A stretch of DNA of 64,000 nt from Candidatus Latescibacterota bacterium (GTDB lineage Bacteria > Latescibacterota > UBA2968 > UBA8231). Positions 33,229 through 64,000 of the stretch are shown piece after piece. The position numbers and the translations under genes were made by a program. Under the pieces are notes generated by a model. The model was not told the origin of the DNA, searched no databases, and saw only the letters and a program-made list of their open reading frames with translations. The stretch spans positions 128,001 through 192,000 of the forward strand of contig CBDCDC010000002.1 of NCBI GenBank assembly GCA_965215195.1. Direction: 5' to 3'. Numbering within the stretch: the first letter of the stretch is position 1; each line of letters begins with the position of its first letter.

Positions 33229-34038
33229 ATGGATGTCTTGAGTAGAGAAGAACTTGATTTCTTTGCCGCACAGGGGTACGTCGTCGCTCGCCAGGTAATT
33301 GACCGCGACCAAGCCGAGCGCACCGGGCGGGCGGTGTGGGCGTTTGCCGGCATGGACCCGGACGATCGCGGGACTTGGTATCCAAAGAATCGGCGCGGCA
33401 TCATGGTCGAGATTTACCACCACCAGACTATGTGGGACAACCGCACGAGCCCTCGGGTCCACCGGGCTTTCAGCCAGATTTGGGGCACGGACAAGCTGTG
33501 GGTCAGCCACGATCGGGCCAGCATCAATCCGCCGGTCTTAGACAAAGATGCGCCCGAGCACAATCTGCACTGGGACGCAGCCTTAGATAAGCGTCCTTTG
33601 CCTTTTGGCGTGCAGGGCGTGCTCTATCTGAGCGACACGCCGGCCGCGCAGGGGGCCTTTATTTGCGTGCCGGGGTTCCACCAGCGCTTAGAGGCGTGGC
33701 TCGACGAGCTGCCGGAGGGGGCCAACCCCCGCAAGCAAGATCTGCTGGTCTTGGGATCGCGGCGCATCGGGGCCGAGGCCGGCGACTTGGTCATCTGGCG
33801 CACGGCCCTGCCGCACACGGCAAGCGTCAATCGCGGCGACGCGCCTCGCGTGGCGCAGTACATCACCATGAAGCCAGCCGGCGAGGGCGAAGAGGCGCGG
33901 CGGTTGCGCACGGACTTTTGGCAGCGGCGGCTGTCCGGGCTAGGGCGCTATGCCGAGGAGCGCGAGCACCGCGAAGAGAAGACGGCTGAGTTGACGAGTT
34001 TGGGGCGGAAGTTGGCCGGGGTGGATCCTTGGCGATGA
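33229..34038 (+). CDS. PhyH-family Fe(II)/2OG dioxygenase
   Basis: [37 protein letters not shown]. Confidence 0.88.
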
Positions 34039-34100
34039 GGACGGCGAGCGGCAAAAAAAGAAAGACTGGAAGCGCACTCGGCATTTCCGGGTCTGGCGAA

Positions 34101-35285
34101 ATGCAGACGAAGCAATCGGTTTACGACAGGCGAAAGTACCGCGTGAAAAACGTCGAGGGTGCCAAGCAGATTTCTGCAAATTACCTAAAGGATATAGACC
34201 TCGACAACGCAATTGAATTTGGGCTGCCCGAGGTGGATGACCGCTATCACATCTGGCGAGTGCCATTAAAAGGTAGAGATGGACACAAGGTGGGCGAAGT
34301 TGCGATTGATGCACATACGAGTTTGATACAACAAAAAAAGACGACGCAAAAGCAGGTCTTAGAAGCGCGGTTACTAGGGCGCACAAACAAAAAACAAAAA
34401 AAAGAGACGAGCCTACCTAAGATCTCAAATTTGCGTAACACGATTGGTTTGGGAGATAGCGAAGTACTGCTTGCGCAGACGCCCTCTGAGTCCATCGATC
34501 TCGTCTTCACCTCTCCTCCCTACTACAATGCGCGACCTGAATACTCTGATTACATTCAATACGATGAATACTTGCTCAAGATGAGAAAGGTAATACACCA
34601 ATGTAACAGAGTGCTAAATGAAGGAAGATTTTTTGTTATAAATATATCGCCCGTGTTAATTCGCCGAGCAAGTCGAAGTGAATCATCTAAGAGAATAGCT
34701 GTCCCCTTTGATTTTCACCGCATTTTTATCGAAGAGGGATTCGAGTTTATTGATGACATAATATGGGTGAAACCGGAAGGTGCCGGTTGGGCAACCGGGC
34801 GTGGCCGGCGGTTTGCCGCTGATAGAAATCCACTGCAATACAAGGCCGTCCCCGTAACGGAGTACATTTTAGTCTATCGCAAGAAAACGGATAAATTGAT
34901 CGATTGGCACATCCGCAAGCATCCACAGCAAAACTTAGTTGCGGCGTCGCGGATTGAGGACGGATATGAAGTAACCAACCTTTGGAACATACATCCTGCC
35001 CACAGCAAAAAGCATCCGGCGATATTCCCCGTAGAGCTAGCCGAAAAAGTGATCCAGTACTATTCGTTCAAAAACGACGTCGTCCTCGATCCCTTTGCCG
35101 GCATTGGCACCGTGGGACAAGCGGCCATCAAGCTAGATAGGCGATTCGTGTTATTTGAGATAAACGAGGACTACATCGACGAAATGAGGAAAAATATCGA
35201 GAACTGGTTACAGCAGGAAGTCGAAGACGTGAATTGGATAAACTGCGAACCGGTCACTCCTGTTAAGAACTATATTAAATTTTAG
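34101..35285 (+). CDS. Beta-class amino-methyltransferase (probably m4C; M.CfrBI-like)
   Basis: TSPPY precedes HPAIFP and [10 protein letters not shown]; AT-rich relative to the backbone; start uncertain (34029-34101). Confidence 0.88.
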
Positions 35286-35287
35286 GA

Positions 35288-36376
35288 TTGGATAGACAAA
35301 TGCTTTATGAAAAGATGTCGAACAATGTCCCCCGTAGCGGTGAGACTCTCGCAAAGTATAGAGGCGTTGAAGTCATTGATAGAATTGGTGAGGATATAGT
35401 TAAGGAAGTTGTGACTTCCGTACTGTGCGGCGAAAATATCCGTTCTTTAACCGAGGGATTGACCCGCAGAAGATTAGCACTTTCAAATGCGGCGTTATTT
35501 ATGACGTTTCTTAAATCCAATCACGATATTGAAAATTTTATCGATAAGCTACCAGAGATTGTAAAAATAGAACTAAATTCAAACATTTCGAGTGAGAAGA
35601 AGCTATTTCTGCAATGGTGTATTGGGTTGACGGGAAAAAGCATACAGAATGTACTAAGAAATAAAGATGACGAACTCGATAATTATCTCAATGCTCTTGA
35701 GGAATCCCTCAAAAAGTCTGCGGCTAAATGTAAAATCGACTATGGAGAGCTCGAAGGCATTTTAGAAGTTCAGGGCGTAAAGTGCAAGGTAAATTGGCCC
35801 TTCATTCTCTATCTCTTTGCTGCTATTGGTACTCAAACATTAGCAATCAGAGGCTCTGAAAAATCAATGTATGGCAAATTGTTCGAGAAACTTATATTGG
35901 GTTCTCTGCTTTCTCTGTTAGGATTCCAAAAGGTCGATCCTCGAACTGATAAAACTGATAGGGTTTTTTGGCTCTCCGAACGCGGAGAAAAACGAGAAAG
36001 CGATGCTACTCTATTATATAGACTAGGTGTTGGGGTAAGGTTTGATATTGGCTTTATCGGGCCGGGAAATACAGAGATTTCTTTAGATAAAGTATCCAGA
36101 TTTGAAAAGGAGATGGAGTTAGGGAGACAATTGCACTATATGTCAACAATTATTCTAGTGGATAGGATTGGTGAAGGGAGTCGTATTGTCGAGATGGCCC
36201 AAGCAATAAATGGAGATATTGTCCAAATGAGTATGACGCACTGGACGAAAGAAGTAGCAAATATATTGGCGGCGAAAATAGATTTTAAGCATCCTATAGT
36301 GGAATTATCAAATAGTGAGAGTTTAGAATACATTAGAGAAGGGATGCAGCAGATCAACCTAAGAGAGTTTATATAA
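35288..36376 (+). CDS. CfrBI-family type II restriction endonuclease
   Basis: TLAIRGSEKS.YGKLFEKL, RESDATL, RFDIGFIG.GN.EISLDKVSRF; directly follows the MTase; AT-rich. Confidence 0.8.
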   Translation: MDRQMLYEKMSNNVPRSGETLAKYRGVEVIDRIGEDIVKEVVTSVLCGENIRSLTEGLTRRRLALSNAALFMTFLKSNHDIENFIDKLPEIVKIELNSNISSEKKLFLQWCIGLTGKSIQNVLRNKDDELDNYLNALEESLKKSAAKCKIDYGELEGILEVQGVKCKVNWPFILYLFAAIGTQTLAIRGSEKSMYGKLFEKLILGSLLSLLGFQKVDPRTDKTDRVFWLSERGEKRESDATLLYRLGVGVRFDIGFIGPGNTEISLDKVSRFEKEMELGRQLHYMSTIILVDRIGEGSRIVEMAQAINGDIVQMSMTHWTKEVANILAAKIDFKHPIVELSNSESLEYIREGMQQINLREFI

Positions 36377-44238: not shown

Positions 44239-44266
44239 GTAACACCCCGCGCCACCGTAGGTGTTT
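44239..44266 (+). promoter_or_regulatory. Possible ECF-type autoregulated promoter
   Basis: GTAACA-16 nt-GTGTTT ending 24 bp upstream of the ECF gene; AAC-containing -35 typical of ECF promoters. Confidence 0.35.
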
Positions 44267-44290
44267 AAGTAGCACACCGCCAGGAGATAC

Positions 44291-44764
44291 ATGGACGTAG
44301 AAGCACTGTACCGTCGCTACGGGCCAATGGTCATGCGTCGCTGTCGGCAGCTTTTGCGCGACGAAGACCAAGCGCTTGACGCCACCCAAGATGTCTTTGT
44401 GCGGCTGTTGACGCGGCGCGACCGCCTGCGGGACGACGCGCCCTCCAGCCTGCTCTATCGCATGGCCACTAATCTCTGCCTCAATCGCATCCGCGACGCC
44501 CGGCGGCGGAAGACCACGGCCGACTCAACGCTGCTGGAGCAGATAGCCTGCTGGGAGGACGCCGAGGGCCGGATAGAGGCGCGCTCGGTGCTCGCCAAGC
44601 TCTTTGGCCAGCAGCGCGAGTCAACGCGCACGATGGCCGTCTTGTACTACGTTGACGGCATGACTTTGGAGGAGGTGGCGAGGGAAGTGGGTCTGTCCGT
44701 GTCCGGCGTGCGCAAGCGGCTGCTCGGCCTGCGAGCATCGCTGCAGAAGATGGAGAAGCTATGA
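44291..44764 (+). CDS. ECF RNA polymerase sigma factor
   Basis: LYRRYG, DATQDVF, LYRMATNLCLNRIR, GMTLEEVAREVGLSVSGVRKRL. Confidence 0.92.
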   Translation: MDVEALYRRYGPMVMRRCRQLLRDEDQALDATQDVFVRLLTRRDRLRDDAPSSLLYRMATNLCLNRIRDARRRKTTADSTLLEQIACWEDAEGRIEARSVLAKLFGQQRESTRTMAVLYYVDGMTLEEVAREVGLSVSGVRKRLLGLRASLQKMEKL

Positions 44765-45546
44765 ACCAGCAAGACAAGCGCCCCATAAGCGACTACCAAC
44801 TAGAGCGCTACCTGCTGCGCGAGGGCACGGCCGACGAGTTAGCGGCCGTGGAGCGCCAGTTGGCGGCCGATCCAGTGCTCGCGCAGCGGCTAGCGGCCCT
44901 AGCGCACTCCAACGAGGAATTGCATCGGCGCTATCCACCCGAATGGATGCGCGGCCAGATCGAGCTAAAACTCAAGGCTTCGACGAGCTCAGCCGAAACG
45001 CAGGCACCGGGCCGGCGCGCCCAAAAAACGTGGAGTGGGTATCGCCTTTGGGCCGTGCCGGCCGTGGCCCTGATCCTGGCGGTGGTGGCGGTGCCCACTC
45101 TCTTTGAGCGGGAAACCTCGGAAGCACCCGCGCTGCGGGTCAAGGGCGGCGAGCAGGGGCCGCGTTTGCTGGTCTTCCGCAAGCTGGCCAGCGGTGCGGA
45201 GCGTCTGCAAGACGGGGCCTTGGCCCAAAGCGGAGACTTGGTGCAGCTCGCCTACCGCTCGGCTGGCTTGCAGTACGGGGCGATCCTGTCCGTTGATGGG
45301 CGCGGTGCCGTAACTCAGCACCTGCCCGCGACTGGAGCAGAGGCCGTGCCACTGGCCACGCAAGATACCCTCGACGTTGCCTACGAACTGGATGACGCGC
45401 CCCGGTGGGAGCGGTTTTACTTGGTGGCGGCCGACCGCCGCTTTGGCTTGGCAGCAGTCAAGACCAAGCTGGCGGCTGGCGATGTGGCGTTGGGTGATGA
45501 CGTGCGCCTTTTTACCTTCACCCTGCGCAAACCGGAGGCCCCTTAG
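44761..45546 (+). CDS. Single-pass membrane anti-sigma factor with extracytoplasmic (DUF4384-like) domain
   Basis: ATGA-coupled to the ECF. ISDYQLERYLLRE helical N-domain, TM helix WAVPAVALILAVVAVPTLF, then LRVKGG and a beta domain (GDLVQLAY, ILSVDGRG, YELDDAP). Confidence 0.75.
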   Translation: MNQQDKRPISDYQLERYLLREGTADELAAVERQLAADPVLAQRLAALAHSNEELHRRYPPEWMRGQIELKLKASTSSAETQAPGRRAQKTWSGYRLWAVPAVALILAVVAVPTLFERETSEAPALRVKGGEQGPRLLVFRKLASGAERLQDGALAQSGDLVQLAYRSAGLQYGAILSVDGRGAVTQHLPATGAEAVPLATQDTLDVAYELDDAPRWERFYLVAADRRFGLAAVKTKLAAGDVALGDDVRLFTFTLRKPEAP

Positions 45547-45569
45547 CTTATAACCCGCGAGGTATAACT

Positions 45570-46142
45570 ATGGAAGCCGTACTGAACTTTCAGCCCGTTA
45601 TCGCTCTGACCGAAGAGCAATTTTTCGACTTTTGTCAACTCAATCGCGACGTGCGTATTGAGCGCAATGCAAAAGGAGAAGTACTAGTTACGTCCCCAAC
45701 GGGAGGAGCAACGGGTGCCCGGAATGCAGAAATCACCGTGCAGTTGGGCGCATGGGCCAAACAAGATGGCACCGGCGTGGCCTTTGATTCCTCGACCGGA
45801 TTTGTGCTACCTGACCGCTCTGTCCGCTCGCCGGATGGCGCATGGGTGGCGCGGTGGCGGTACGCGGCCCTGACCGAGGCGCAAAAGGATCGCTTTCTGC
45901 CCCTTTGTCCAGAGTTCGTCATTGAGCTCAAGTCTCGCACGGATTACCTGCCCTCGTTGCAGCAAAAAATGGAAGCATACATTGAAAACGGCACTCAACT
46001 CGGCTGGCTCATCGTCCCAGAGCAAAAAACAGTAGCGATCTACCGTCCGCAGCTTTCCGTTGAAGTGCGGAAAAACCGCAATGCCCTATCGGCCGATCCC
46101 ACCTTGCCGGGCTTTGTCTTGAATCTCAGCGAGATTTGGTGA
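45570..46142 (+). CDS. Uma2-family endonuclease-fold protein
   Basis: FDSSTGF.LP, RSPD.AWV, CPEFVIELKS, KMEAYIENG.QLGWLI. Confidence 0.92.
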   Translation: MEAVLNFQPVIALTEEQFFDFCQLNRDVRIERNAKGEVLVTSPTGGATGARNAEITVQLGAWAKQDGTGVAFDSSTGFVLPDRSVRSPDGAWVARWRYAALTEAQKDRFLPLCPEFVIELKSRTDYLPSLQQKMEAYIENGTQLGWLIVPEQKTVAIYRPQLSVEVRKNRNALSADPTLPGFVLNLSEIW

Positions 46143-46164
46143 TCGCCTCCTTTGGCCGACCATA

Positions 46165-48222
46165 ATGTTGTCGCGGCTGAGTGTGCTAATCGCGCTCGTG
46201 GTTGCGGCGGGCCTGCCCCAACCGGTAGAGGCCGAGGTGCGTCGATTGGTGCTAGCGGCCGGGGCCAACAACGGCGGGGTGGATCGCGAGCTGCTGCGCT
46301 ACGCAGTCTCGGACGCGGAGCAATTCGTCGAGGTGTTGCAGGAGATGGGGGGCCTAGACCCGGCCGATGTATTGCTGTTGCGCGACCCGGATTTGGCCGC
46401 TTTCGAGCGGGGGCTGGCCGCGTTGGGCCGGCGGGTGCAGGCGGCCAGCCGGCGGGGGGACCGCTTAGAGGTGTTGCTTTACTACTCGGGCCACGCCGAC
46501 GAAGAGGGCCTGCTGTTGGCCGGCGATCACCTCGGCTACCAGCAGTTGCTCGACTCGCTGCAGACGGCCGAGGCCGCTGTCCGCATCGCCGTCCTCGACG
46601 CCTGCAATTCTGGAACCATAACCCGCATCAAGGGAGGCAAGTCCAAGCCGCCCTTTTTGGTCGATGAGTCCTTTGACATGAGGGGCTACGCCTTCCTCAC
46701 GTCGAGTTCGGCCGATGAGGCGGCGCAGGAATCGGACCTGCTCGAGGCTTCCTTTTTTACCCACTATCTAATTTCCGGGATGCGCGGTGCGGCCGACGTT
46801 ACCGGCGATGGCCGGGTGACCCTGCACGAGGCGTACCAGTTCGCATTCGACGAGACGCGGGCGCGGACTCTTGGGACTGCGGGAGGCACTCAGCACCCAG
46901 CCTATCAAGGCCAGATGCGCGGCACTGGCGGCGTGGTGATGACCGAGGTGCGGCGCAACGCCGCCGGCCTGTTGCTGGACGAGGCCCTCGCCGGCCGGAT
47001 CTCGATCCGCAATGCCCAGCAGCGCCTAGTCGCCGGGCTGAATAAATCCCCCGGGCGGGCGGTCGAATTGGGATTGGGGCCGGGGGCCTATACCCTGTTT
47101 TGGCAAACGTGGGACGCGGACTGGCGCTTGGCCGAATTAGTCCTGAGCGAAGGGGAGTTCGCCGAGGTGAGTACTGGCGACTTCCGCGTCCTGACCCCAG
47201 AAGACACGAGACTGCGCGGCCGCTCGGGGCGGAGGATTACCTTGGGGCACCAGATCGAGGTCGCCACCCGCGAAGGCTACACCTTGTCGCTGGGGCTGTT
47301 GACCAATACGCAGGACGAAGCGTTCCGCGGCGTCCAGTTCGCTTGGCTGGTCAACCAAGCGCGCGCGCGCACCGGCAATCAGATCGGCGGGTTGGGCAAC
47401 TTGGCGCTCAAAGAAGTCGATGGCTGGCAGGCGGCTGTCGTGGGCGTCAACTGGGCGCTGGGGCCGTTGCAGGGTGGACAGGTGGGCTTGATCAACATCG
47501 CCTCGCAAGTGCGCGGCTGGCAGGTGGCGCAAACGACCAATGTCGTCGGCAAAATCCGCGGTTGGCAGGTGGCTGGGGTCACCAATTTCGTCGGCGAGGT
47601 CAAGGGCGGTCAGGTCGGATTGTTGAACGTGGCGAGCGAGGTCAAGGGCTGGCAGGTGGGCTTGGTCAACCTTTCCGGCCACATTGAGGGCGGCCTGCCC
47701 ATCGGGTTGATCAACTACTCGCGCAGCGGGCTTTTCAACCTCAGCACTTGGCGCGACGAAGTCGGCTTTACCATGTTCACCCTCGCCTCGGGCAGCCGCT
47801 CGTTTTACACCGCTTTTACCACTGGCTTTGCCGACGAGGACGGGCAGCGGCGCTGGGCGTTGGGCATAGGAGGTGGGGTGCAGAAGCGCGGGCGGCGGTT
47901 TTTCCTCGGCCTTGATGTACATAGCTACCGCATCAGCCGCGACCTCGATGACGATTACAAAGCGGGCATTGGATTTTGGCCGCCCAGAGTGGGCTTGGGT
48001 TTGGATCGCTTGGCTAGGGATAACTACCTAGCGCGGATCAAACTTGAGACCGGGGTCTCTTTGCACCGCCGTCTGGCGCTGTTTGGCGGCGTCTCCTTAA
48101 ACCAACTGTGGACCGATGGCCATCTGCGGCTGATTGAGTCGGGTAGCCGCTACGAAAAGGAGTGGAGAGACGGGCTTTTCGCATGGCCGGGATTTTTCTT
48201 TGGGATGCGCTACGGGCGCTAG
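46165..48222 (+). CDS. Exported caspase-family (peptidase C14) protein with GxQxGxxN surface repeats and beta-rich C-terminus
   Basis: Signal peptide ending VEA; LRYAVSDA, YYSGHA (His), VLDACNSG (Cys), SS..E.AQES, FTHYL..G.RGAAD; about eight GxQ..N repeats; aromatic-rich end WPGFFFGMRYGR. Confidence 0.85.
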   Translation: MLSRLSVLIALVVAAGLPQPVEAEVRRLVLAAGANNGGVDRELLRYAVSDAEQFVEVLQEMGGLDPADVLLLRDPDLAAFERGLAALGRRVQAASRRGDRLEVLLYYSGHADEEGLLLAGDHLGYQQLLDSLQTAEAAVRIAVLDACNSGTITRIKGGKSKPPFLVDESFDMRGYAFLTSSSADEAAQESDLLEASFFTHYLISGMRGAADVTGDGRVTLHEAYQFAFDETRARTLGTAGGTQHPAYQGQMRGTGGVVMTEVRRNAAGLLLDEALAGRISIRNAQQRLVAGLNKSPGRAVELGLGPGAYTLFWQTWDADWRLAELVLSEGEFAEVSTGDFRVLTPEDTRLRGRSGRRITLGHQIEVATREGYTLSLGLLTNTQDEAFRGVQFAWLVNQARARTGNQIGGLGNLALKEVDGWQAAVVGVNWALGPLQGGQVGLINIASQVRGWQVAQTTNVVGKIRGWQVAGVTNFVGEVKGGQVGLLNVASEVKGWQVGLVNLSGHIEGGLPIGLINYSRSGLFNLSTWRDEVGFTMFTLASGSRSFYTAFTTGFADEDGQRRWALGIGGGVQKRGRRFFLGLDVHSYRISRDLDDDYKAGIGFWPPRVGLGLDRLARDNYLARIKLETGVSLHRRLALFGGVSLNQLWTDGHLRLIESGSRYEKEWRDGLFAWPGFFFGMRYGR

Positions 48223-48499: not shown

Positions 48500-49259
48500 T
48501 CATTCTGCGGAGTAGCGTTGTGTGCCTGCCTTGGCCGCTTCGTCGATCTCGCTTTCCTTTTCGCGAAAGCTGGAGCGCCGCATTACAGAGGGACGCAGCT
48601 CCCACGAATCGCAGCTTTCTCCGCGGAAATAGAACTGGACATTATCAGCGTAGCGTTTTTTGAGATCGCGGCATTTTTTTAGCAAGCTCTCAATGCTTTT
48701 GATTTTCTCATCGCTGTTACTTTGATCTGTTCCAGCATTCTGTGATTCATCCATACAGCTTCGCTTTCCACACCTGCGAATACGATAGATTGGCCCAAGA
48801 GAGATTTGCTTTGCGAAAGCTAGCGTTGATTAGAGTTGCCCCAGTGAGATTCGCTTTGTAAAGGTTGGCGCGGTCGAGTTCAGCCTCGGTAAGGTCCGCT
48901 TCAATGAGGTGGGCTTCAATGAGGTGGGCTTCAATGAGATAGGCTTTGCACAGTTTGGCACGAGACAGATCGGCTCCGTTCAGTTTGGCGGAATCAAGCT
49001 CGGCCTCGGTGAGGTCGGCCTCGGTGAGGTCGGCTCCGCTGAGGTCGGCTCCGCTGAGGTCGGCTCCGCTGAGGTCGGCTCCGCTGAAATTGATTCCCCG
49101 TAAATAAGCTCGTCCATCATTGCCCAACGCCCCCATTTTCTTGAACTCGCTAGAAATATCTGCTCCCTCAAAGTCGGGCTTAAAATCTTCTCGCTCGCGC
49201 CTCTCGTTCCAAACATTGACGCCTTTGAGGAGCCATTCGATATGATTTTGGTTTGCCAT
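48500..49259 (-). pseudogene. Pentapeptide-repeat / FRG-domain fusion, frameshifted near 48750 and truncated
   Basis: A(D/E)LxxA repeats after WNERR..PDFEGAD; next frame FYFRGESCDSWELRPSVMR (FRG motif), then similarity is lost. Confidence 0.75.
49026..49085. repeat. Four perfect copies of 15-bp GAGGTCGGCTCCGCT (SGADL pentapeptide)
   Basis: Directly visible tandem array. Confidence 0.92.
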
Positions 49260-49365
49260 GGAATGCCTCTTTCTACTCTCGTCTCCGCTTCTTTTGTAAT
49301 ACAACAGATGGATAAAACGTTCACAAGGGACAGCGAGTTCCGTCTCTGCGTAGGGACTCGCGTCG

Positions 49366-57393: not shown

Positions 57394-58344
57394 GTGAATA
57401 TGCTAGACGAACTGTGCAAAATCCGCTATGCTCGCTTCCGCTTGGACATGGCCGCGGTCAGCCGGTTGAAGCTCCCGCCCTACAAGGGATCGACCTTTAG
57501 GGGGGCCTTTGGCCATACCTTCAAGCGGCTGGTTTGCGTCAAGCGGGATATGGACTGTTCTACTTGCCTGATCTGCAACCAGTGCGTGTACTACTACGTT
57601 TTTGAGACCCCGTTCAGTGGCGCGGGGGATGGCCGCGGCTATGCCTTTGCGCCGCATCCTTTTGTAGTTGAACCGCCCGAGGAGACGCGGGAAATCTACG
57701 AGCCGGGGGCCGAGCTGCGGGTCGGACTAGTTTTGGTGGGGCGGGCGCTGGACTACCTGCCCTACTTCATCTACGCGTTTGAGGAAATGGGGCAGCGCGG
57801 GTTGGGGGTCGGGCGCGGCCAAGCTGCTTTGCAGCGGGTAATCGCCCTCGGTCCCGAGCGCGGCGACGAAAGATGCGTGTATCAGGCGGATACTGGACAA
57901 CTGGAGCCGGACTATCCGGTCTGCGTTGGTCCGCCCGGCGGCGCGGCGGTTGGAACGCGGCTGCGGCTGCGGCTGCACACGCCTATCCGTCTCAAGGCCG
58001 AGGGGCGCTATATCCGCCGCCTCGACTTTGCTCCCTTGGTGCGGGCCTTGTTGCGGCGCACTTCGGACTTGGCCCGCTTCCACTGCGGGGCCGAGTTGGC
58101 CTTGGACTATCGGCAGTGGATTGAGCGGGCTGCCGAGGTGCGGCAGGTAGCGGCTGCGGTGCGCTGGCACGACTGGGAGCGGTATTCGCAGCGGCAGGAA
58201 CAGAAGATGAAGTTGGGCGGGTTGGTGGGCGAAGTGGAGTTTGCTGGCGAGTGGGAGCCATTCCTGCCGCTGTTGCGGTTGGGGGCGGATTTGCACGTGG
58301 GCAAGGGGACGGGTTTTGGGCTGGGACGCTATGAGATTTTGTGA
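57394..58344 (+). CDS. cas6: CRISPR RNA processing endoribonuclease Cas6
   Basis: YKGSTFRGAFG, C..C..C..C Zn motif, PHPFV, HVGKGTGFGLG G-loop. Confidence 0.92.
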   Translation: MNMLDELCKIRYARFRLDMAAVSRLKLPPYKGSTFRGAFGHTFKRLVCVKRDMDCSTCLICNQCVYYYVFETPFSGAGDGRGYAFAPHPFVVEPPEETREIYEPGAELRVGLVLVGRALDYLPYFIYAFEEMGQRGLGVGRGQAALQRVIALGPERGDERCVYQADTGQLEPDYPVCVGPPGGAAVGTRLRLRLHTPIRLKAEGRYIRRLDFAPLVRALLRRTSDLARFHCGAELALDYRQWIERAAEVRQVAAAVRWHDWERYSQRQEQKMKLGGLVGEVEFAGEWEPFLPLLRLGADLHVGKGTGFGLGRYEIL

Positions 58345-58720
58345 GGGAGAAGGATGACGACATGCCATAAGCTTTAGGGACGATTTGGCTGCATTGGTTG
58401 CTGCACTCGCTACTGTGGAGATCCATGTGACGCCTGAGATTAAATAACCGCGCTAAAGAAAAAGCCGCCGAGTGGTTTGGTAGTTAATGGACAGTTCGTT
58501 ATATTGTTGATCAATTTAGGAACGACGCTTCGCGCTCATCGACCCGACCGCCGTTCCCAAGCCGAGCAGGGCCGCGAGCCGTTTGTGCAAGGCGAGCACC
58601 ATTGGCTTGACCTATAGGTTTGTGATCCATATTTTGCAGGACAGGAAAGGAACTTTAACATCATGGCCGAACAATCTAAAGCAGCTCCGATGACCAAAGC
58701 CCAGTTCAAGGATAATCGCA

Positions 58721-59617
58721 ATGACCAAGACAAAGTTGAAACTTGAAACCGTGACGCCGATGTTTCTCCATGGTGAGAATCGTACAGAACTCGAACTTCG
58801 GCCACCGCCTTTCAAAGCCCTATTTCGCTATTGGTGGCGAACCGTGCAGGATTGCGATGAAAACTCGCTTAGGGAGGCCGAGGCAAAGCAGGATTGCGAT
58901 GAAAACTCGCTTAGGGAGGCCGAGGCAAAGTTGTTTGGTAGTACAAAAGGTAAAGCACCATTCTCAATTCGTATTTCAGGAACAACGAATCTGGCAAATA
59001 CCAAATGTAAACCGTTGCCACATCGGACTGATAATCGTGGTTTTAAGAGAGATGCTTACAAAGGGGGACAATCATTTGACCTGCATCTAATTACAAATAC
59101 AAAGAACAGTTCAGATGCTTCGACTTATGAACAGATTGCGAAACTCGGTTTTTTGCTCGGCGGCGTCGGCAATCGCTCGCGGCGCGGGTTCGGGTCAATT
59201 CGTGAAAAAGGTTGGAATTTCCCAAGCGTTTGCGATCTAAAAAGGGAGATTTTGGATACACTCAATGCTGTCGCATGTGACACGCGGTTTTGGATAAACG
59301 GCCAAATCATTGAATCGACACTCACCAACTTTCCCGGTTACCCTGTCATTCGATGTATCCATTTTGGTAAACCAACAAGTAACGTTGATAGTCTATTGAA
59401 GAAAATTGGTCAGGCGACTCATGATCACAACAGTGATGCTTTGGGTTATGCAAAAGGACAAAAACGGCTGGCTTCGCCAATTCATGTTCGTATTCAGAAA
59501 GTCGGCAATGAATATGTCCCGGTTGTCACGCGACTTCATCTTGTCACGCGACTTCATCACTCAACTTATATCAGACACAGCAAGCAGAGGGACTTTATTT
59601 GTGCCATCATCACGTAG
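58721..59617 (+). CDS. cmr1: Type III-B RAMP protein Cmr1
   Basis: LETVTPMFLHG, RPP.FK..FRYWWR, LFGS, GGVGNRSRRGFGS, RLASP. Confidence 0.9.
   Translation: MTKTKLKLETVTPMFLHGENRTELELRPPPFKALFRYWWRTVQDCDENSLREAEAKQDCDENSLREAEAKLFGSTKGKAPFSIRISGTTNLANTKCKPLPHRTDNRGFKRDAYKGGQSFDLHLITNTKNSSDASTYEQIAKLGFLLGGVGNRSRRGFGSIREKGWNFPSVCDLKREILDTLNAVACDTRFWINGQIIESTLTNFPGYPVIRCIHFGKPTSNVDSLLKKIGQATHDHNSDALGYAKGQKRLASPIHVRIQKVGNEYVPVVTRLHLVTRLHHSTYIRHSKQRDFICAIIT
58846..58929 (+). repeat. Perfect 42-bp in-frame tandem duplication in cmr1 (QDCDENSLREAEAK x2)
   Basis: Two identical adjacent units, 58846-58887 and 58888-58929. Confidence 0.95.
59523..59558 (+). repeat. Perfect 18-bp in-frame tandem duplication near the cmr1 3' end
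   Basis: TTGTCACGCGACTTCATC x2. Confidence 0.92.
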
Positions 59618-59626
59618 GAGGTTCAC

Positions 59627-61471
59627 ATGAGTGACAATCAACCAAAACGCCTCATGCTCATGTTCACAATTGGCCCCGTGCAATCTTTCATTGAAGCGGC
59701 TCGGAAGACGGAGGATTTGTGGATGGGAAGTTACATTCTGTCTTATCTTGTGGCTCATGCAATGGACAAAATTCGAGGCAGCGATGTTGAGCTAATCTAT
59801 CCCGCCATTGGAAGCCAATCGCCCTTTGATTTTTGGAAGCAACAAGATTTCACAACCCCGTCTTTTCCAAATCTTTTTTTGGCAATTGGCAACGACATTG
59901 AGGTTTCTCAACTGGCTCAACGCGCAAAAGACGCTGAAAACAGTGTAAAATCTGAGTTCAAGCGCATGGCAGAATGCGTGATTGATAAGGCATTTGGAAG
60001 GGACAAGTGGCATAGGTCTTATGTTGAGAAAGTAGTTGAGCGACAAATCTCGGATTTTTTTGATATCTATTGGGTGATTACCGAAGAAACAGGTCAAAAT
60101 TATGGGGATTGGTACGCTCATACCGCAGGCAGTCTCGCGGCGATCAAAAACTGTCGGGCATTTGCACCAATCAGTGAGTTTGGACGAAAATGTTCGCTTG
60201 ATGGAACACGCGAGATACTCCATTTAGATCAAAAAGCCTCTGTCCAAGACGCAATGAAATGGTGGCAAGATTTTGCTAAACGAGAACCAAAGTATTGCCG
60301 ACAAAAAGAGGCACTCTGTGCTGTCTCATTAACTAAGCGGATGGGCAGGCATTTTCTTGAGACTCAATCGAGATTCAAGGACAACTTTTCACCTGACAAA
60401 CTTCTGACCTTTCCATCCACATCGGAGGTGGCGACAGCGGACTTCAAGGAACAATTCCAAAGCAACATCCAAGCCTGGTGTGTTTACGGACAGTTCTTTG
60501 ACGAAGTCAGAAAATTGAAGGCATCAATTCCAATTATTCGGCCATTGCCAAAAATCAAGAATTTGCAGAAGAACATCGATGGCGAATGGCTGTACGAAGA
60601 GACTTGGAGCGAGCCCTATCTCAGACGTTACTACAACATTGATTCAGAAAAAGAGAAGAATCAAATTGAAAATTGTAAGCGATTGCGTGGGAAACTTGTC
60701 CGATTGCTCGGCGAACCGGGCCGATACTATGCCGCCATTGCGCTTGATGCTGATAATATGGGCGAAAAAAATAGAGAGGCTAAAAACAAGGAAGAACATG
60801 AAGGACGCAGCAAGCAACTGATTCGATACACAAAAGATGCGCGTCAGATCATTGAACAAGAGTATCTCGGGAAGTTGACGTATGCGGGCGGCGACGACCT
60901 CTTAGCACTCGCAAATCTCAAAGAGCTCTTACCCATGTTGAAAGGATTGCGAAAAAAATTTCCCGGTTTCACGACCGCTTCAGCCGGTGTGTGCATCGCT
61001 CACAATAAAACTCCGCTCGGCAGTGTGCTTCAGCAGGCACGTCGGATGGAGCGAGCGGCAAAAGAAGGTGGGCGAGATGCGCTTGGCATTGCATTGTTCA
61101 AACACTCTGGCAATATCAGTCAAGCAGTAACAAAGTGGAAATATGAAGGTTTGGATGTGATCGACATCAGCGAGAAATTGGTCAAGCTGTTGCGCGATGA
61201 CGAAATTTCCAAGCGTTTCCTGTACGACTTCCGTGAAACATTTGCCAAACTAGTTGAAGACAGAAAGGACTTTAGAGCACTTGGTCGGCCCCTTATTCAA
61301 ACCGAGTTTAGGCGAATTATGGAACGGGCGCATTCAACCAAAGGAACACAGCCTCCACAAAGCGAAGAAACTATTGATTCACTGACTCAACTTATCCACT
61401 ACATCAGCCCCTTCTCTCACTTTCTCGGGTATTTGGAAGTTGTCAACTTCATTGTGAGGAATCAAAAATGA
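59627..61471 (+). CDS. cas10: Cas10/Cmr2 without HD domain, with intact GGDD palm
   Basis: TIGPVQSFI..ARKT.DLW.GS, PNLF, CSLDG..LCAV, FPSTSEVA, YYA..LDADNMG, YAGGDD. Confidence 0.93.
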   Translation: MSDNQPKRLMLMFTIGPVQSFIEAARKTEDLWMGSYILSYLVAHAMDKIRGSDVELIYPAIGSQSPFDFWKQQDFTTPSFPNLFLAIGNDIEVSQLAQRAKDAENSVKSEFKRMAECVIDKAFGRDKWHRSYVEKVVERQISDFFDIYWVITEETGQNYGDWYAHTAGSLAAIKNCRAFAPISEFGRKCSLDGTREILHLDQKASVQDAMKWWQDFAKREPKYCRQKEALCAVSLTKRMGRHFLETQSRFKDNFSPDKLLTFPSTSEVATADFKEQFQSNIQAWCVYGQFFDEVRKLKASIPIIRPLPKIKNLQKNIDGEWLYEETWSEPYLRRYYNIDSEKEKNQIENCKRLRGKLVRLLGEPGRYYAAIALDADNMGEKNREAKNKEEHEGRSKQLIRYTKDARQIIEQEYLGKLTYAGGDDLLALANLKELLPMLKGLRKKFPGFTTASAGVCIAHNKTPLGSVLQQARRMERAAKEGGRDALGIALFKHSGNISQAVTKWKYEGLDVIDISEKLVKLLRDDEISKRFLYDFRETFAKLVEDRKDFRALGRPLIQTEFRRIMERAHSTKGTQPPQSEETIDSLTQLIHYISPFSHFLGYLEVVNFIVRNQK

Positions 61472-62625
61472 AACTTTTTCTTTCACCCAATGATACCTTC
61501 TTTTTTCGCGATGGGAGGCCGTTTACAAAAGGCGAACAGACGGAAGGGCATTCAATTTTTCCACCGCTTCCCTCGACGGTCCTCGGTGCGTTAAGGACTG
61601 CATACATCGCCGAGTTTGGCAACTTGCCGCTTTTCTATTCAGGAGGGATGCAAAAAACGATTGGCACGCCGGCATCACTATGCAATGCGATTCGACTGCG
61701 CGGTGTTTTTTTGGCGAACAATCGAGGCGATCAGTTGGAGATGTTTTTCCCTGTGCCGCGTGACCTGATATACAAGAAGGAGGATAAAAAGCAGAATGAC
61801 AATATCGCACTCCATTTGCTGACACCAGAGGCCAAAAATTTCACATCGAATGGGACAATCAACAACGTACTTGCATGGTCGGCTCCCGATTCCATTGATT
61901 TGGATGCAGATGGCTTGTTACGCATGGGAGCTATCGGACGATACCTGCAAGGAAACGATAGGAACCTGCTACTTACAGATAGGGCAACACTTGTTGAGCG
62001 AGAATCCAAGGTCGGCATCGCCCGAAGTCGAGATACTTTGTCATCCGAGGAGCACATGTTGTATCGTATTGACATGTCCAGATTCAAAAACCGCGATGGA
62101 AATTACGGTTTCGTCGTGGACTACGAATGCTCCAAAAATTTACCACAAAAAGGACTTTTGAAATTAGGTGGTGAAGGCAAAAGCTTTGTCTATCGGGGCA
62201 TCGACCTTAACGTTGAGTCGCTGTCTAGCCATCTTGGGGCGGTCAAAAGCACTATGCAATCAACAGGCAAGTTCAAGCTATATTTCGCAACACCGACCAT
62301 ATTTCAGAAAGGATGGTTGCCTTCATGGTTGGATAGGTTGGACGGAGGTACGCCTTCGGGCGAATATCCAATGGCGAGTAGTTCGCCAATTTCGCTCAAA
62401 TTGATCACTGCTGAGGTTGGTAAACCTGTTACCATTGGTGGATGGGATATGGCAAAAGGCGAGGCAAAACCGACCTATCGTGCTGTGCCCGCTGGCAGTG
62501 TTTACTATTTTGAATTGATGAATAAAAACCGAATTGATGATTTAATCGCCGCTTTCCACTATCAAAACATCAGCGACGAGCGTTCCGAAGAAGGGTTCGG
62601 ACTTGCCCTTCTCGGCGTCGCATAG
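61468..62625 (+). CDS. cmr3: Type III-B Cmr3 (Cas5-like RAMP)
   Basis: P.DTFFFRDGRPF, PP.PST..GALRT, LGGEG, GGWD, VPAGSVYYF, EGFG. Confidence 0.93.
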   Translation: MKLFLSPNDTFFFRDGRPFTKGEQTEGHSIFPPLPSTVLGALRTAYIAEFGNLPLFYSGGMQKTIGTPASLCNAIRLRGVFLANNRGDQLEMFFPVPRDLIYKKEDKKQNDNIALHLLTPEAKNFTSNGTINNVLAWSAPDSIDLDADGLLRMGAIGRYLQGNDRNLLLTDRATLVERESKVGIARSRDTLSSEEHMLYRIDMSRFKNRDGNYGFVVDYECSKNLPQKGLLKLGGEGKSFVYRGIDLNVESLSSHLGAVKSTMQSTGKFKLYFATPTIFQKGWLPSWLDRLDGGTPSGEYPMASSSPISLKLITAEVGKPVTIGGWDMAKGEAKPTYRAVPAGSVYYFELMNKNRIDDLIAAFHYQNISDERSEEGFGLALLGVA

Positions 62626-62636
62626 GGAGGAAAATA

Positions 62637-63920
62637 ATGAAGACACTTGTAACGCCCGTTGGCACATCGCTGTTTACGAACTATCTCGATAAGAACTCGA
62701 ATGATGAGACCTCAAAATCTTATTATGACACAATCAAAAAACGCCCCGCTTCGGAGTGGGGCGATTATGAGAGTGAAATTAACGATCTGAAGAGGGTTAG
62801 CCTTAGCTTTATCGGCATGTCTGGAGTACAGGCTTCAGCCGAACTTCAGAGCATCGCTAAAATTCGATGCGAACTCAACGAGGAACTCAAAGTTCGCCTG
62901 CTTGCCTCGGGTACGATTGCGTCGCGATTGGCGGCGGAGATTTTGGCTGACAATACTTTGGCTGACAATACAGTGACCCCGGTTTTGGGAAGTGGTGTAC
63001 GTGTCGAATTTGATTCAGAAAAAGATGTAATCAAAGGTTTACAGGTTGAAGATCCCAAAGCCTTTTCAAATGAAGGCATGACCAACCTGATTCAAAAGAT
63101 TGACCAAGAGGCTTCTGGATACTGGCCGAAACTTGCTATCAATATCACTGGAGGGTTCAAAGCTACCTTGCCATATCTGACGATTTTGGCACAACTCAAG
63201 CACATTCCGCTTTACTACAACTTTGAGGACACTGACTCACTCATCAAAATTCCGCAAGCACCATTGGTTATTGATTGGGGCTTGATTGAACGGTATTCCG
63301 ACATCCTTATGCAAATTGATAAGGGTGTAGAAGGCAATTGGCCGAAATTTAAAAAAAGACACTACCAAGCTGTTCAAAATTTGGAGGCATTCATTGAAGT
63401 TGATGACAAGGATGCACTTCTGTCACCGATTGGCACAATTTTCTGGGAGGAGTATCAAAATTACTTCGTCGTCGAATTGCCAGGTGGAAGTTATTACGGC
63501 TATAATTCCACTGACCGTCGGTCGATTGATGGAGCCATTGAAGAGCTTTATAGACGGTTACGCGCTGTTCTGTCAGACACTTGCCTGCAAGACTGCGATG
63601 GAAATCTTATACCTGATAAGTGTTACGAAAAAATTCGTAATTTGGGACACAATGATGACTTGAATCACGGTAGGCAGATTCCCAATCCGACGGAAAGTCA
63701 GGACCGGGAAATTTTCATTTTCAAATCAACAAATGATGTTCATATACGATTGCTGTATACCTTCAAGGTTAATAGTAAAAAAATTACTCGGCTCAAGATA
63801 TTCGACCTCCTTTGTCGAGATTTCGATCATGAGAGTTATATTGACGATTGGAAAACAAAGTTCGGTGAAGAAAGATTTCCTGAAATCAACTTTGTCACAC
63901 GTACACTTGAAATTCCTTAG
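62637..63920 (+). CDS. CARF (APE2256/Crn1-like)-wHTH-RelE-like effector, Cami1-like
   Basis: TPVGTS, SAEL.S, NITGGFK, YYNFE; LSPIG.IFW wing; C-terminal IRLLYTF..LKIFD..DHESY. Confidence 0.7.
   Translation: MKTLVTPVGTSLFTNYLDKNSNDETSKSYYDTIKKRPASEWGDYESEINDLKRVSLSFIGMSGVQASAELQSIAKIRCELNEELKVRLLASGTIASRLAAEILADNTLADNTVTPVLGSGVRVEFDSEKDVIKGLQVEDPKAFSNEGMTNLIQKIDQEASGYWPKLAINITGGFKATLPYLTILAQLKHIPLYYNFEDTDSLIKIPQAPLVIDWGLIERYSDILMQIDKGVEGNWPKFKKRHYQAVQNLEAFIEVDDKDALLSPIGTIFWEEYQNYFVVELPGGSYYGYNSTDRRSIDGAIEELYRRLRAVLSDTCLQDCDGNLIPDKCYEKIRNLGHNDDLNHGRQIPNPTESQDREIFIFKSTNDVHIRLLYTFKVNSKKITRLKIFDLLCRDFDHESYIDDWKTKFGEERFPEINFVTRTLEIP
62942..62971 (+). repeat. Perfect 15-bp in-frame tandem duplication in the CARF gene (LADNT x2)
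   Basis: TTTGGCTGACAATAC x2. Confidence 0.9.
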
Positions 63921-63935
63921 AAAGGAGAAACCCAA

Positions 63936-64000
63936 ATGTTCAAACAAGCTAAACCCTTCTTCCTCATCGTCGAAACCCCACTCCACGCCGGAAGCGGTAG
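63936..64000 (+). CDS. cmr4: Cmr4 N-terminus (runs off the window)
   Basis: AAGGAG RBS; MFKQAKPFFLIVETPLHAGSG. Confidence 0.85.
   Translation, partial: MFKQAKPFFLIVETPLHAGSG

Follow-up and report, generated by a model that had tools for sequence, protein, structure and literature searches.

The locus at positions 44239-48222 of a 64,000-nt stretch of DNA from a Candidatus Latescibacterota bacterium (assembly GCA_965215195.1, contig CBDCDC010000002.1, positions 128,001 to 192,000) raises the question of whether an exported caspase-family protease can release a sigma factor of the extracytoplasmic function (ECF) type by cutting its anti-sigma factor. The whole stretch is referred to as the window, and positions are window coordinates unless stated otherwise. 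The locus consists of four genes, which all lie on the plus strand together with the features described within them, and encodes an ECF sigma factor, a single-pass anti-sigma factor, a Uma2-family protein and a protease of family C14. ECF sigma factors constitute one of the largest signalling families and, to our knowledge, the activating protease is known for only a minority of their groups; bacterial caspase homologues are numerous, and we know of almost none with a known substrate. A first-pass annotation of this DNA had proposed that the C14 protease is a surface receptor that cleaves both itself and the anti-sigma factor at a motif found in both proteins, R-[VIL]-[KR]-G. The analysis presented here gives an even chance that the protease serves as a dedicated caspase-clan site-1 protease in the regulated proteolysis of the anti-sigma factor.

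Organization and conservation of the module

The gene identities in the first-pass annotation agreed with the open reading frames (ORFs) and with Pfam and NCBIfam scans. The product of the first gene (44291..44764; 157 amino acids) matched Sigma70_r2 (E 2e-15), r4_2 and Sigma70_ECF in Pfam and scored 83.7 bits against TIGR02937 (cut-off 42.9). Only the sigma-2 and sigma-4 regions are present and the score lies above the family cut-off, which identifies an ECF (group IV) factor of the sigma-70 family. Translational coupling joins it to the second gene (44761..45546), whose start overlaps its stop codon by 4 nt and whose ORF and AlphaFold model indicate a single-pass anti-sigma factor of 261 amino acids. 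The protease gene (46165..48222) encodes 685 amino acids of a metacaspase-like C14 protein, with features of an exported protein and a predicted C-terminal outer-membrane anchor.

To examine whether these genes belong together, relatives of the caspase were collected (3076 proteins at E<=0.001 among 8000 candidates scored), and a scan of one genome per species yielded 450 stretches encoding a relative, of which the best 80 were kept as loci. Their labels were Latescibacterota, Gemmatimonadota, Fibrobacterota (including Fibrobacter succinogenes) and, once each, Planctomycetota, 'Enterobacterales' and a Bradymonadia assembly. A second homologue search returned mostly proteins 24-31% identical to the query, and the few named ones were all from Fibrobacter. 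The sigma, anti-sigma and caspase genes were found in that order and on one strand in 74 of the best 80 loci, with stop and start codons overlapping by 1 or 4 nt in many of them. Three loci end inside the anti-sigma gene (L014, L017 and L044), and three have no sigma/anti-sigma pair beside the caspase gene (L030, L052 and L057); in the genome of L030 a pair adjoins a caspase fragment, and no anti-sigma gene was found in the 1.9-Mb assembly of L057.

The co-occurrence of the triplet extended to the phylum of the Bradymonadia locus, labelled Myxococcota, in which 69 of 151 genomes matched the anti-sigma profile and the same three-gene order was present in 30 of the 30 loci fetched (the Myxococcota-type loci). 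Among 151 genomes of the window's phylum, 52 contained both the anti-sigma factor and the N-terminal caspase domain, 7 the anti-sigma factor only (4 of them fragments), 3 caspase fragments only, and 6 only the C-terminal repeat and barrel part. When the ORFs of the loci were clustered, only the sigma, anti-sigma and caspase families were common across loci, the other large clusters being overlapping-frame artefacts or specific to one clade. The module is widespread, occurring in Fibrobacterota, Latescibacterota, similar uncultured lineages and also Myxococcota, and the anti-sigma family alone comprises 2007 clusters (50% identity) at E<=1e-30. The window's genome holds one copy of the caspase by protein search; a six-frame search with PF00656 gave no match in that genome, but it also missed the window's own caspase and is too coarse to judge paralogues. 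A correlation between the length of the anti-sigma stub and that of the caspase C-terminus (rho 0.72, 71 loci) was driven by two clades and was rejected as evidence.

In the window, a Uma2-family gene (45570..46142; Pfam Uma2 E 4.9e-37), putatively restriction endonuclease-like, stands on the same strand between the anti-sigma and caspase genes, with gaps of 23 nt and 22 nt to its neighbours. It is a recent insertion into the operon and not part of the conserved module, since of 81 loci only 6 have a Uma2 gene there (L019, L020, L022, L023, L032 and the locus of the window itself). In two metatranscriptome runs from one study, contigs about 90% alike covered the sigma and anti-sigma genes and most of the caspase gene of a relative without Uma2; as RNA libraries may contain DNA, these contigs do not establish that the genes are transcribed.

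Fold and predicted location of the caspase

The protease gave a Peptidase_C14 (PF00656) score of 31.4 bits against a cut-off of 21.4, and its AlphaFold model had a mean predicted local distance difference test (pLDDT) score of 77.4. A signal-peptide-like N-terminus (residues 1-23; 46165..46233), with a hydrophobic stretch that ends in V-E-A and a modelled helix at residues 2-15, is followed by a catalytic domain with a caspase fold at residues about 25-235 (46237..46869; fold matches 22-261). The modelled fold contains a His-Cys dyad, consisting of His110 in an SGH motif (46492-46494) and Cys147 in a DAC motif (46603-46605), both invariant in 22 of 22 homologues, which places the protein in clan CD, family C14. 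The VIA-align search matched this domain to Arabidopsis metacaspase 4 (AtMC4, 6w8r; Z 17.6, root-mean-square deviation (rmsd) 3.0, 206 residues aligned) and to caspases at Z 16-17, and the best Foldseek match was the C. glabrata metacaspase 7qp0 (E 4e-4).

Metacaspases cut after Arg or Lys. For the window's caspase, too, a basic P1 residue is expected, because metacaspases are its closest solved relatives in both sequence and fold and because Asp50 and Asp145 appear to correspond to residues of the S1 pocket. Asp50 is aligned to the Asp in the C-x-x-D motif of metacaspases, and Asp145 lies two residues before the catalytic Cys; both are presumed to be equivalent to S1-pocket residues of TbMCA2, in a model whose pocket region (149-188) is poorly resolved. 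The S1 pocket of TbMCA2 is given as Cys92, Asp95, Ser156 and Asp211 in the consulted part of a review (PMC4357240).

Within the same low-confidence stretch (149-188), a loop after the catalytic Cys carries T-R-I-K-G-G (46621..46638), in which the invariant R-x-K-G-G takes up positions 7 to 11 beyond Cys147. The maturation cut of caspases proper falls in the loop roughly a dozen residues past their catalytic Cys. By analogy, the position of the motif fits the self-processing loop of caspase-family enzymes, and the loop is a candidate self-processing or latch site.

The catalytic domain is followed by an immunoglobulin (Ig)-like beta-sandwich at residues 257-345 (46933..47199; strands 258-335 in the model), and caspase-plus-Ig3 chains of MALT1, which have a similar arrangement, aligned over 334-410 columns in Foldseek. 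Then comes a linker with T-R-L-R-G (47206..47220; consensus T-x-x-R-G), a proposed anchor-release site, in which residues 348-360 have pLDDT <50. A beta-helix stalk of LA_2272-type repeats occupies residues about 354-520 (47224..47724; fold matches to 548); it scored 26.5 bits against NCBIfam LA_2272_repeat (cut-off 25) and was matched by VIA-align to the antifreeze protein 3p4g (Z 14.3) and to the TpsA-/autotransporter-type passengers EtpA, HMW1 and Ag43 (Z 11.5-12.5). The remaining residues, about 521-685 (47725..48219), were modelled as an 8-stranded outer-membrane beta-barrel. In the model of the full-length protein, the best VIA-align match of the barrel was the N-terminal barrel of OprF (4rlc; Z 15.2, rmsd 2.1, 116 residues aligned), followed by NspA, OmpW, PagL and the OmpA transmembrane domain at Z 12-13.8.

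Both termini of a small even-stranded barrel lie in the periplasm, and such a barrel is unable to export a passenger. As the C-terminus models as an 8-stranded OmpA-like barrel after a beta-helix, the caspase domain probably resides in the periplasm, attached to the outer membrane at its inner face. The surface receptor of the first-pass annotation is accordingly unlikely, the modelled barrel putting the caspase domain on the periplasmic side. The shared compartment that its proposal requires is supported, since hydrophobicity and the models place the motif-bearing parts of both proteins in the periplasm.

The linker with R-G is marked as a module boundary by one family of relatives, of the same class (G041, G068, G023, G065 and G037), in which similarity to the caspase profile ends right after it, around position 357, and gives way to a different C-terminal part. 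In this family a second such caspase gene was seen about 3 kb downstream of the first. Six genomes (G004, G010, G012, G020, G022 and G025) encode proteins with only the beta-helix and barrel part (profile about 380-672) and no caspase domain, so that the anchor is a module also combined with other N-terminal parts.

The anti-sigma factor and the shared motif

The anti-sigma model (mean pLDDT 83.6) contained helices at residues 11-79, a helix at 100-113 and a beta domain at 135-256. Residues 11-79 (44791..44997) form a cytoplasmic domain of four helices, mostly with pLDDT >90, that would bind the sigma factor, judging from the model. A hydrophobicity scan located the transmembrane helix at residues 95-115 (45043..45105), so that the protein has the architecture of a transmembrane anti-sigma factor, with an N-terminal helical domain, one transmembrane helix and a C-terminal beta domain. 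In the predicted periplasmic part, residues 115-128 have pLDDT <50, the stretch ending in R-V-K, and a confident beta-sandwich (45163..45528) begins at residue 135. The juxtamembrane motif L-R-V-K-G-G (45133..45150; family consensus T-R-I-K-G), with the proposed site-1 cut after Lys128, lies between the transmembrane helix and the sandwich.

The window's protein belongs to no named anti-sigma family, because it scored only 23.2 bits against the NCBIfam 'antisigma' model (cut-off 100). The beta-sandwich resembles DUF4384 (PF14326) without being a member: 22 of 34 family members matched at E<=1, the best match (E 1.2e-05) reached 25.7 bits, no printed score reached the 27-bit cut-off, and the window's own anti-sigma factor gave no match to PF14326. 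No strong PDB fold match was obtained for the anti-sigma model; the top ones, at E about 7e-3, were sandwiches of a generic Ig- or RhoGDI-like type.

A pattern scan found R-[VIL]-[KR]-G exactly where the first-pass annotation had placed it: once in the anti-sigma factor, at residue 126 (nt 45136), and twice in the caspase, at residues 154 (nt 46624) and 349 (nt 47209). Likely coding ORFs of the window's genome contained 164 such sites in 1,435,616 residues (0.114 per 1000), which corresponds to 0.11 expected against 3 seen in the 946 residues of the two proteins, for a motif that was defined after looking. All three sites lie in pLDDT <50 or otherwise low-confidence stretches between well-modelled domains.

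Conservation was counted over the best 80 public loci and the 30 Myxococcota-type loci together. In the anti-sigma factor, Lys128 was kept in 105 of 106 sequences, Gly129 in 106 of 106, Arg126 in 95 and Thr125 in 54, and no residue exceeded about 30% in any of the seven columns that precede the motif. Representatives of 150 distinct 50%-identity clusters gave the same result (Lys 150/150, Gly 149/150, Arg 138/150). In the caspase loop, Asp145, Cys147, Lys156, Gly157 and Gly158 were each present in 111 of 111 sequences, Arg154 in 109 and Thr153 in 90 of these, and in the linker Arg351 was present in 109/109, Gly352 in 107/109 and Thr348 in 89/110. The motif is therefore conserved among homologues of both proteins in the form of a near-invariant basic residue and Gly (106 anti-sigma factors, 109-111 caspases). 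The pattern common to all three sites is T-x-x-[KR]-G. Of the shared motif as first described, the core [KR]-G stands, usually with Thr at -3 and, in the anti-sigma factor, Arg at -2; the full R-[VIL]-[KR]-G is longer than what is conserved.

No R-x-K-G was found in the 50 residues upstream of canonical DUF4384 domains of the same phylum (0/25; three closely related ones have G-K-G), and since it was absent from all 25, the motif is not a general DUF4384 feature. An invariant Lys-Gly in a flexible tether of variable length, 6 residues before a folded domain, is the hallmark of short linear motifs that a partner recognizes.

A conserved promoter-like element upstream of the sigma gene

The stretch 44239-44266, which the first-pass annotation had suggested for a reporter, proved to be a conserved, strand-specific promoter-like element of ECF type, GTAACAC-N14-GGTGTT (44239..44265), 26 nt upstream of the sigma start codon. 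The element is kept across phyla, from Latescibacterota to Fibrobacter. The strict pattern was present upstream of the sigma gene in 52 of 74 loci, and over 973,232 bases it gave 87 matches on the operon strand and 0 on the opposite strand; a relaxed pattern was present in 27 of the 30 Myxococcota-type loci (28 matches on the same strand, 1 on the opposite). Such conservation suggests that the element works as a promoter, and it would fit a self-regulated ECF sigma factor with envelope targets.

Further copies were found downstream of the caspase gene, a second one within 250 nt of the stop codon in 13 loci and a third 4 to 5 kb further in 10. In Fibrobacter, the second copy (55-190 nt after the stop) precedes genes for a Plug-domain outer-membrane protein and DUF4249, and the third (4.3-4.7 kb after the stop) precedes a DUF3450 gene. 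From this arrangement, a local regulon of outer-membrane and TonB-related genes is possible in Fibrobacter. The Fibrobacter loci with extra copies are L040 (8418-14226), L039, L048, L051, L053, L055, L058, L060, L063, L066, L067 and L074; in L039 an insertion sequence with an rve integrase separates the caspase and Plug-domain genes. In a congener of the window's organism (L023, 8250-8482), a near-duplicate of the sigma promoter and leader lies 186 nt after the caspase stop codon and precedes a 45-codon Gly/Arg-rich ORF, a segment that is absent from the window.

The window itself contains no second site of the pattern. The strict pattern has one further match in the window's genome, at C2:122811-122837 (locus L084, 1312-1338), about 5.2 kb before the window start and 67 nt before a gene for a 1064-amino-acid MkoA-like helicase (PADLOC E 1.8e-77). 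The helicase gene comes after a PtuB-like HNH gene (E 3e-69), in a defence island. Five other genomes gave 3 to 5 matches against 0 to 3 for a reversed-pattern control, so that by a rough estimate the single match before the helicase is about at chance level and is a lead only. No helicase-like gene followed the pattern among the genes listed, and read by eye, for three congeners. In two genomes (L151 and L142), a homologous exported protein of 212 or 223 amino acids follows a match, and in one of the two it lies a short way upstream of the sigma operon. The window's genome encodes a 90%-identical homologue (C2:3022131-3022751) that has no element within 200 nt upstream.

The element is near-palindromic, with halves of the GTAACAC and GTGTTAC type and a self-match on the minus strand with 2 mismatches (44239-44267), and in many loci of Fibrobacter each half is the exact reverse complement of the other. 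Because of this near-palindrome, the element could also be an operator for a dimeric regulator.

Proposed mechanism and competing explanations

From the gene order, its conservation, the domain folds, the invariance of the motif in predicted flexible segments and the conserved promoter-like element, we infer a topology, a set of cleavage events, their order and the kind of signal as follows. The ECF sigma factor would be held at the inner membrane by the single-pass anti-sigma factor, and the exported metacaspase-like protease would be fastened through its 8-stranded barrel and beta-helix stalk to the outer membrane's inner face. On an envelope signal, the caspase would cut the anti-sigma factor after the invariant Lys of T-R-x-K-G, as the site-1 cut, and an RseP-type site-2 protease would then remove the remaining stub of 10 to 45 residues. 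A stub of that length is of the size that RseP-type enzymes accept, and the window's genome contains two M50 site-2 protease genes. From the GT[AG]ACAC-N14-GGTGTT promoter, the freed sigma factor would transcribe its own operon as well as, in some lineages, outer-membrane genes nearby. The caspase's own sites would serve self-activation or as a pseudo-substrate latch (cut after Lys in T-R-x-K-G-G of the loop) and release from the anchor (cut after Arg in T-x-x-R-G of the linker). A further-reaching version, which we regard as unlikely but worth stating, is a periplasmic caspase cascade that acts as an envelope sensor, with the protease suspended from the outer membrane by a rigid beta-helix, and follows one rule, a cut before the Gly of T-x-x-[KR]-G, in self-activation, self-release and anti-sigma cleavage; such a cascade would turn a loss of outer-membrane integrity or a changed envelope geometry into transcription.

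As far as they can be computed, none of the points on which the first-pass proposal depended (co-occurrence, motif conservation and, with a putative topology, a shared compartment) came out against it. Several observations nevertheless weigh against cleavage by the caspase. In a fairer null model, 1507 of 2000 random size-matched protein pairs from the window's genome shared a 5-mer with 4 identities and 1 conservative change; motif sharing within one genome is unremarkable, and the weight of the motif comes entirely from the comparison with relatives. The pooled motif counts overstate independent support, as the sequences in the two locus sets are related. The shared core, only [KR]-G, carries little information, and the invariant G-G could be a structural turn. 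In Fibrobacter, the anti-sigma factors keep R-I-K-G while the caspases vary at the middle position, and in the Myxococcota-type loci the Arg at -2 is missing from 9 of 30 anti-sigma factors, whereas 29 of 30 caspases retain it. Both caspase motifs persist in L052 and L057, where no anti-sigma gene is adjacent, and in the genome of L052 a sigma/anti-sigma pair was located on a different contig, followed by no caspase within 1.5 kb. Lastly, the low-confidence loops of the caspase model bar a check of the active-site geometry.

The explanation that survives best beside cleavage is that the three genes do form one module in which the caspase does not cut: the DUF4384-like domain would be the caspase's co-sensor, its inhibitor or a docking partner that binds it, the K-G would serve binding or folding, and the sigma factor would be released by a site-1 cut of a DegS-, Prc- or PrsW-type protease or without proteolysis. 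Linkage and conservation fit binding as well as they fit cleavage, and the co-variation of the motif between partners looked for at the variable middle position was not found. Binding poorly explains why Lys-Gly is invariant in a pLDDT <50 segment of variable length, 6 residues before the first strand, and why T-x-x-[KR]-G recurs in two flexible loops of a protease that is expected to cut after basic residues. This explanation is possible but somewhat improbable.

A second alternative, to which we assign a rather low probability, regards the caspase as a mere output of the sigma factor, that is, a co-transcribed envelope protease for quality control, remodelling or cell death whose motif likeness is coincidental. 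Many ECF operons carry their main targets, the promoter copies before outer-membrane genes in Fibrobacter imply that the sigma factor has envelope targets, chance sharing of 5-mers is common, and the caspase motifs persist in L052 and L057. The coincidence would, however, have been kept across at least three phyla and in 150 of 150 anti-sigma representatives, and the translational coupling of the anti-sigma and caspase genes, with overlaps of -1 or -4 in many loci, suggests matched amounts, as for partners.

An anti-phage defence switch like DdvS/DdvA, in which the caspase senses a phage cue and the sigma factor turns on defence genes, is very unlikely: in its favour are the control of cyclic oligonucleotide-based anti-phage signalling system (CBASS) and clustered regularly interspaced short palindromic repeats (CRISPR) loci by DdvA, which has a periplasmic caspase-like CHAT domain (PMC11506125, in the part consulted), and the MkoA-like helicase next to a PtuB-like HNH gene after the only other strict promoter match, whereas the sigma factor, anti-sigma factor and caspase have no PADLOC match, no defence gene is conserved beside the module, one extra match per genome is about chance and was not followed by a helicase gene in three congeners, and the recurring promoter copies precede outer-membrane and TonB-related genes.

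Sequences around the module

Directly after the caspase gene, on the minus strand at 48500-49304, a gene for a pentapeptide-repeat protein (185 amino acids, Pfam E 2.2e-36) adjoins an 84-amino-acid ORF with a weak FRG-domain match. The G+C content of this region (48-50 kb) is lower, at 0.57. Values of 0.44 to 0.50 were seen at 34001-36000 and 58001-64000, compared with about 0.6 to 0.67 elsewhere in the window, and these two stretches may be acquired DNA.

Comparison with known systems

The first-pass annotation had stated that it knew of no characterised system of this kind. No description of the three-gene system was found in the full-text literature on ECF/anti-sigma systems with caspase-family proteases, and the main text of Casas-Pastor et al. 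2021 does not mention caspase, C14, Fibrobacter, Gemmatimonad or DUF4384, although its supplementary group descriptions may list genomic context. The statement holds to that extent, but the operon link between metacaspases and sigma factors was noted in 2012 (PMC3501461), and the designs of DdvA and craspase are related to it. In that 2012 study, Asplund-Samuelsson et al. described a 'seemingly conserved configuration' of metacaspase and sigma-70-family genes in Myxococcus, Anaeromyxobacter, Haliangium, Sorangium, Ralstonia and Fibrobacter. In the part of that account consulted, there is no anti-sigma factor, motif, topology or mechanism, and the overlap with the present loci is limited to the presence of Fibrobacter and Myxococcota, which does not imply the same family.

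The module resembles RseA/DegS/RseP, RsiW/PrsW and RsiV/signal peptidase in that an ECF sigma factor is co-transcribed with a single-pass anti-sigma factor. It shares with RseA-type systems the short periplasmic stub that the proposed juxtamembrane cut would leave, together with M50 genes in the genome. It differs from them in the proposed site-1 enzyme, an operon-encoded clan CD cysteine protease (C14) with a putative outer-membrane tether, and we know of no RseA-, RsiW- or RsiV-type system that uses such an enzyme. As in FecA/FecR/FecI, the route would lead from an outer-membrane protein through an inner-membrane anti-sigma factor to an ECF sigma factor. The outer-membrane component predicted here is a protease, the core proteins showed no match to FecR or Plug domains, the conserved core contains no TonB-dependent transducer, and a Plug-domain gene is found downstream only in the Fibrobacter loci, behind the second promoter copy.

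DdvA of M. xanthus, as presented in the sections consulted (PMC11506125), is an anti-sigma factor fused to a periplasmic TPR-CHAT part with an incomplete active site, for which self-cleavage of the juxtamembrane linker as a site-1 step before RseP was proposed but not observed. DdvS/DdvA and the present module are alike in an ECF sigma factor, a transmembrane anti-sigma factor, a periplasmic caspase-family part and a proposed cut in a flexible linker next to the membrane. Here, in contrast, the protease is a separate C14 gene product and the anti-sigma factor, of 261 amino acids with a small DUF4384-like domain, has no fused CHAT domain. DdvA-like proteins were reported, in those sections, from Myxococcota and one Comamonas species (PMC11506125), compared with the 2007 clusters of the present anti-sigma family.

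In craspase, a type III-E CRISPR system with Csx29 (TPR-CHAT), Csx30, Csx31 and RpoE, Csx29 cuts Csx30, which holds an ECF sigma factor, and some Csx30 C-terminal domains are DUF4384 (10.1101/2022.08.17.504292, in the part consulted). The likeness to the proposed mechanism lies in a caspase-like protease that cuts a flexible linker of the protein holding the ECF sigma factor, and in the DUF4384 resemblance common to Csx30 and the anti-sigma factor. Craspase differs in being cytoplasmic and RNA-guided, in having CHAT instead of C14 and in lacking a membrane step, and the ORF clustering revealed no cas genes conserved beside the module across loci, which also sets it apart from Cas7-11/CRISPR systems.

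In summary, the module would work like systems of the DdvA and craspase type but belongs to none of them, because its protease is a separate C14 protein with a predicted outer-membrane anchor and neither cas genes nor a CHAT domain are present. We consider it a balanced proposition that the module is a self-contained envelope signalling unit with putative cleavage.

Implications

The module offers a candidate protease/substrate pair that is defined to the residue, and some of its carriers are cultivable and open to genetics. If the proposed cleavage is confirmed, a caspase-clan cysteine protease would join the known site-1 proteases, and a periplasmic system would be linked to the cytoplasmic logic of craspase and to the model put forward for DdvA. 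The further-reaching caspase cascade, if true, would for the first time assign a defined physiological substrate and a role in signalling to an exported metacaspase of bacteria, within a family of thousands.

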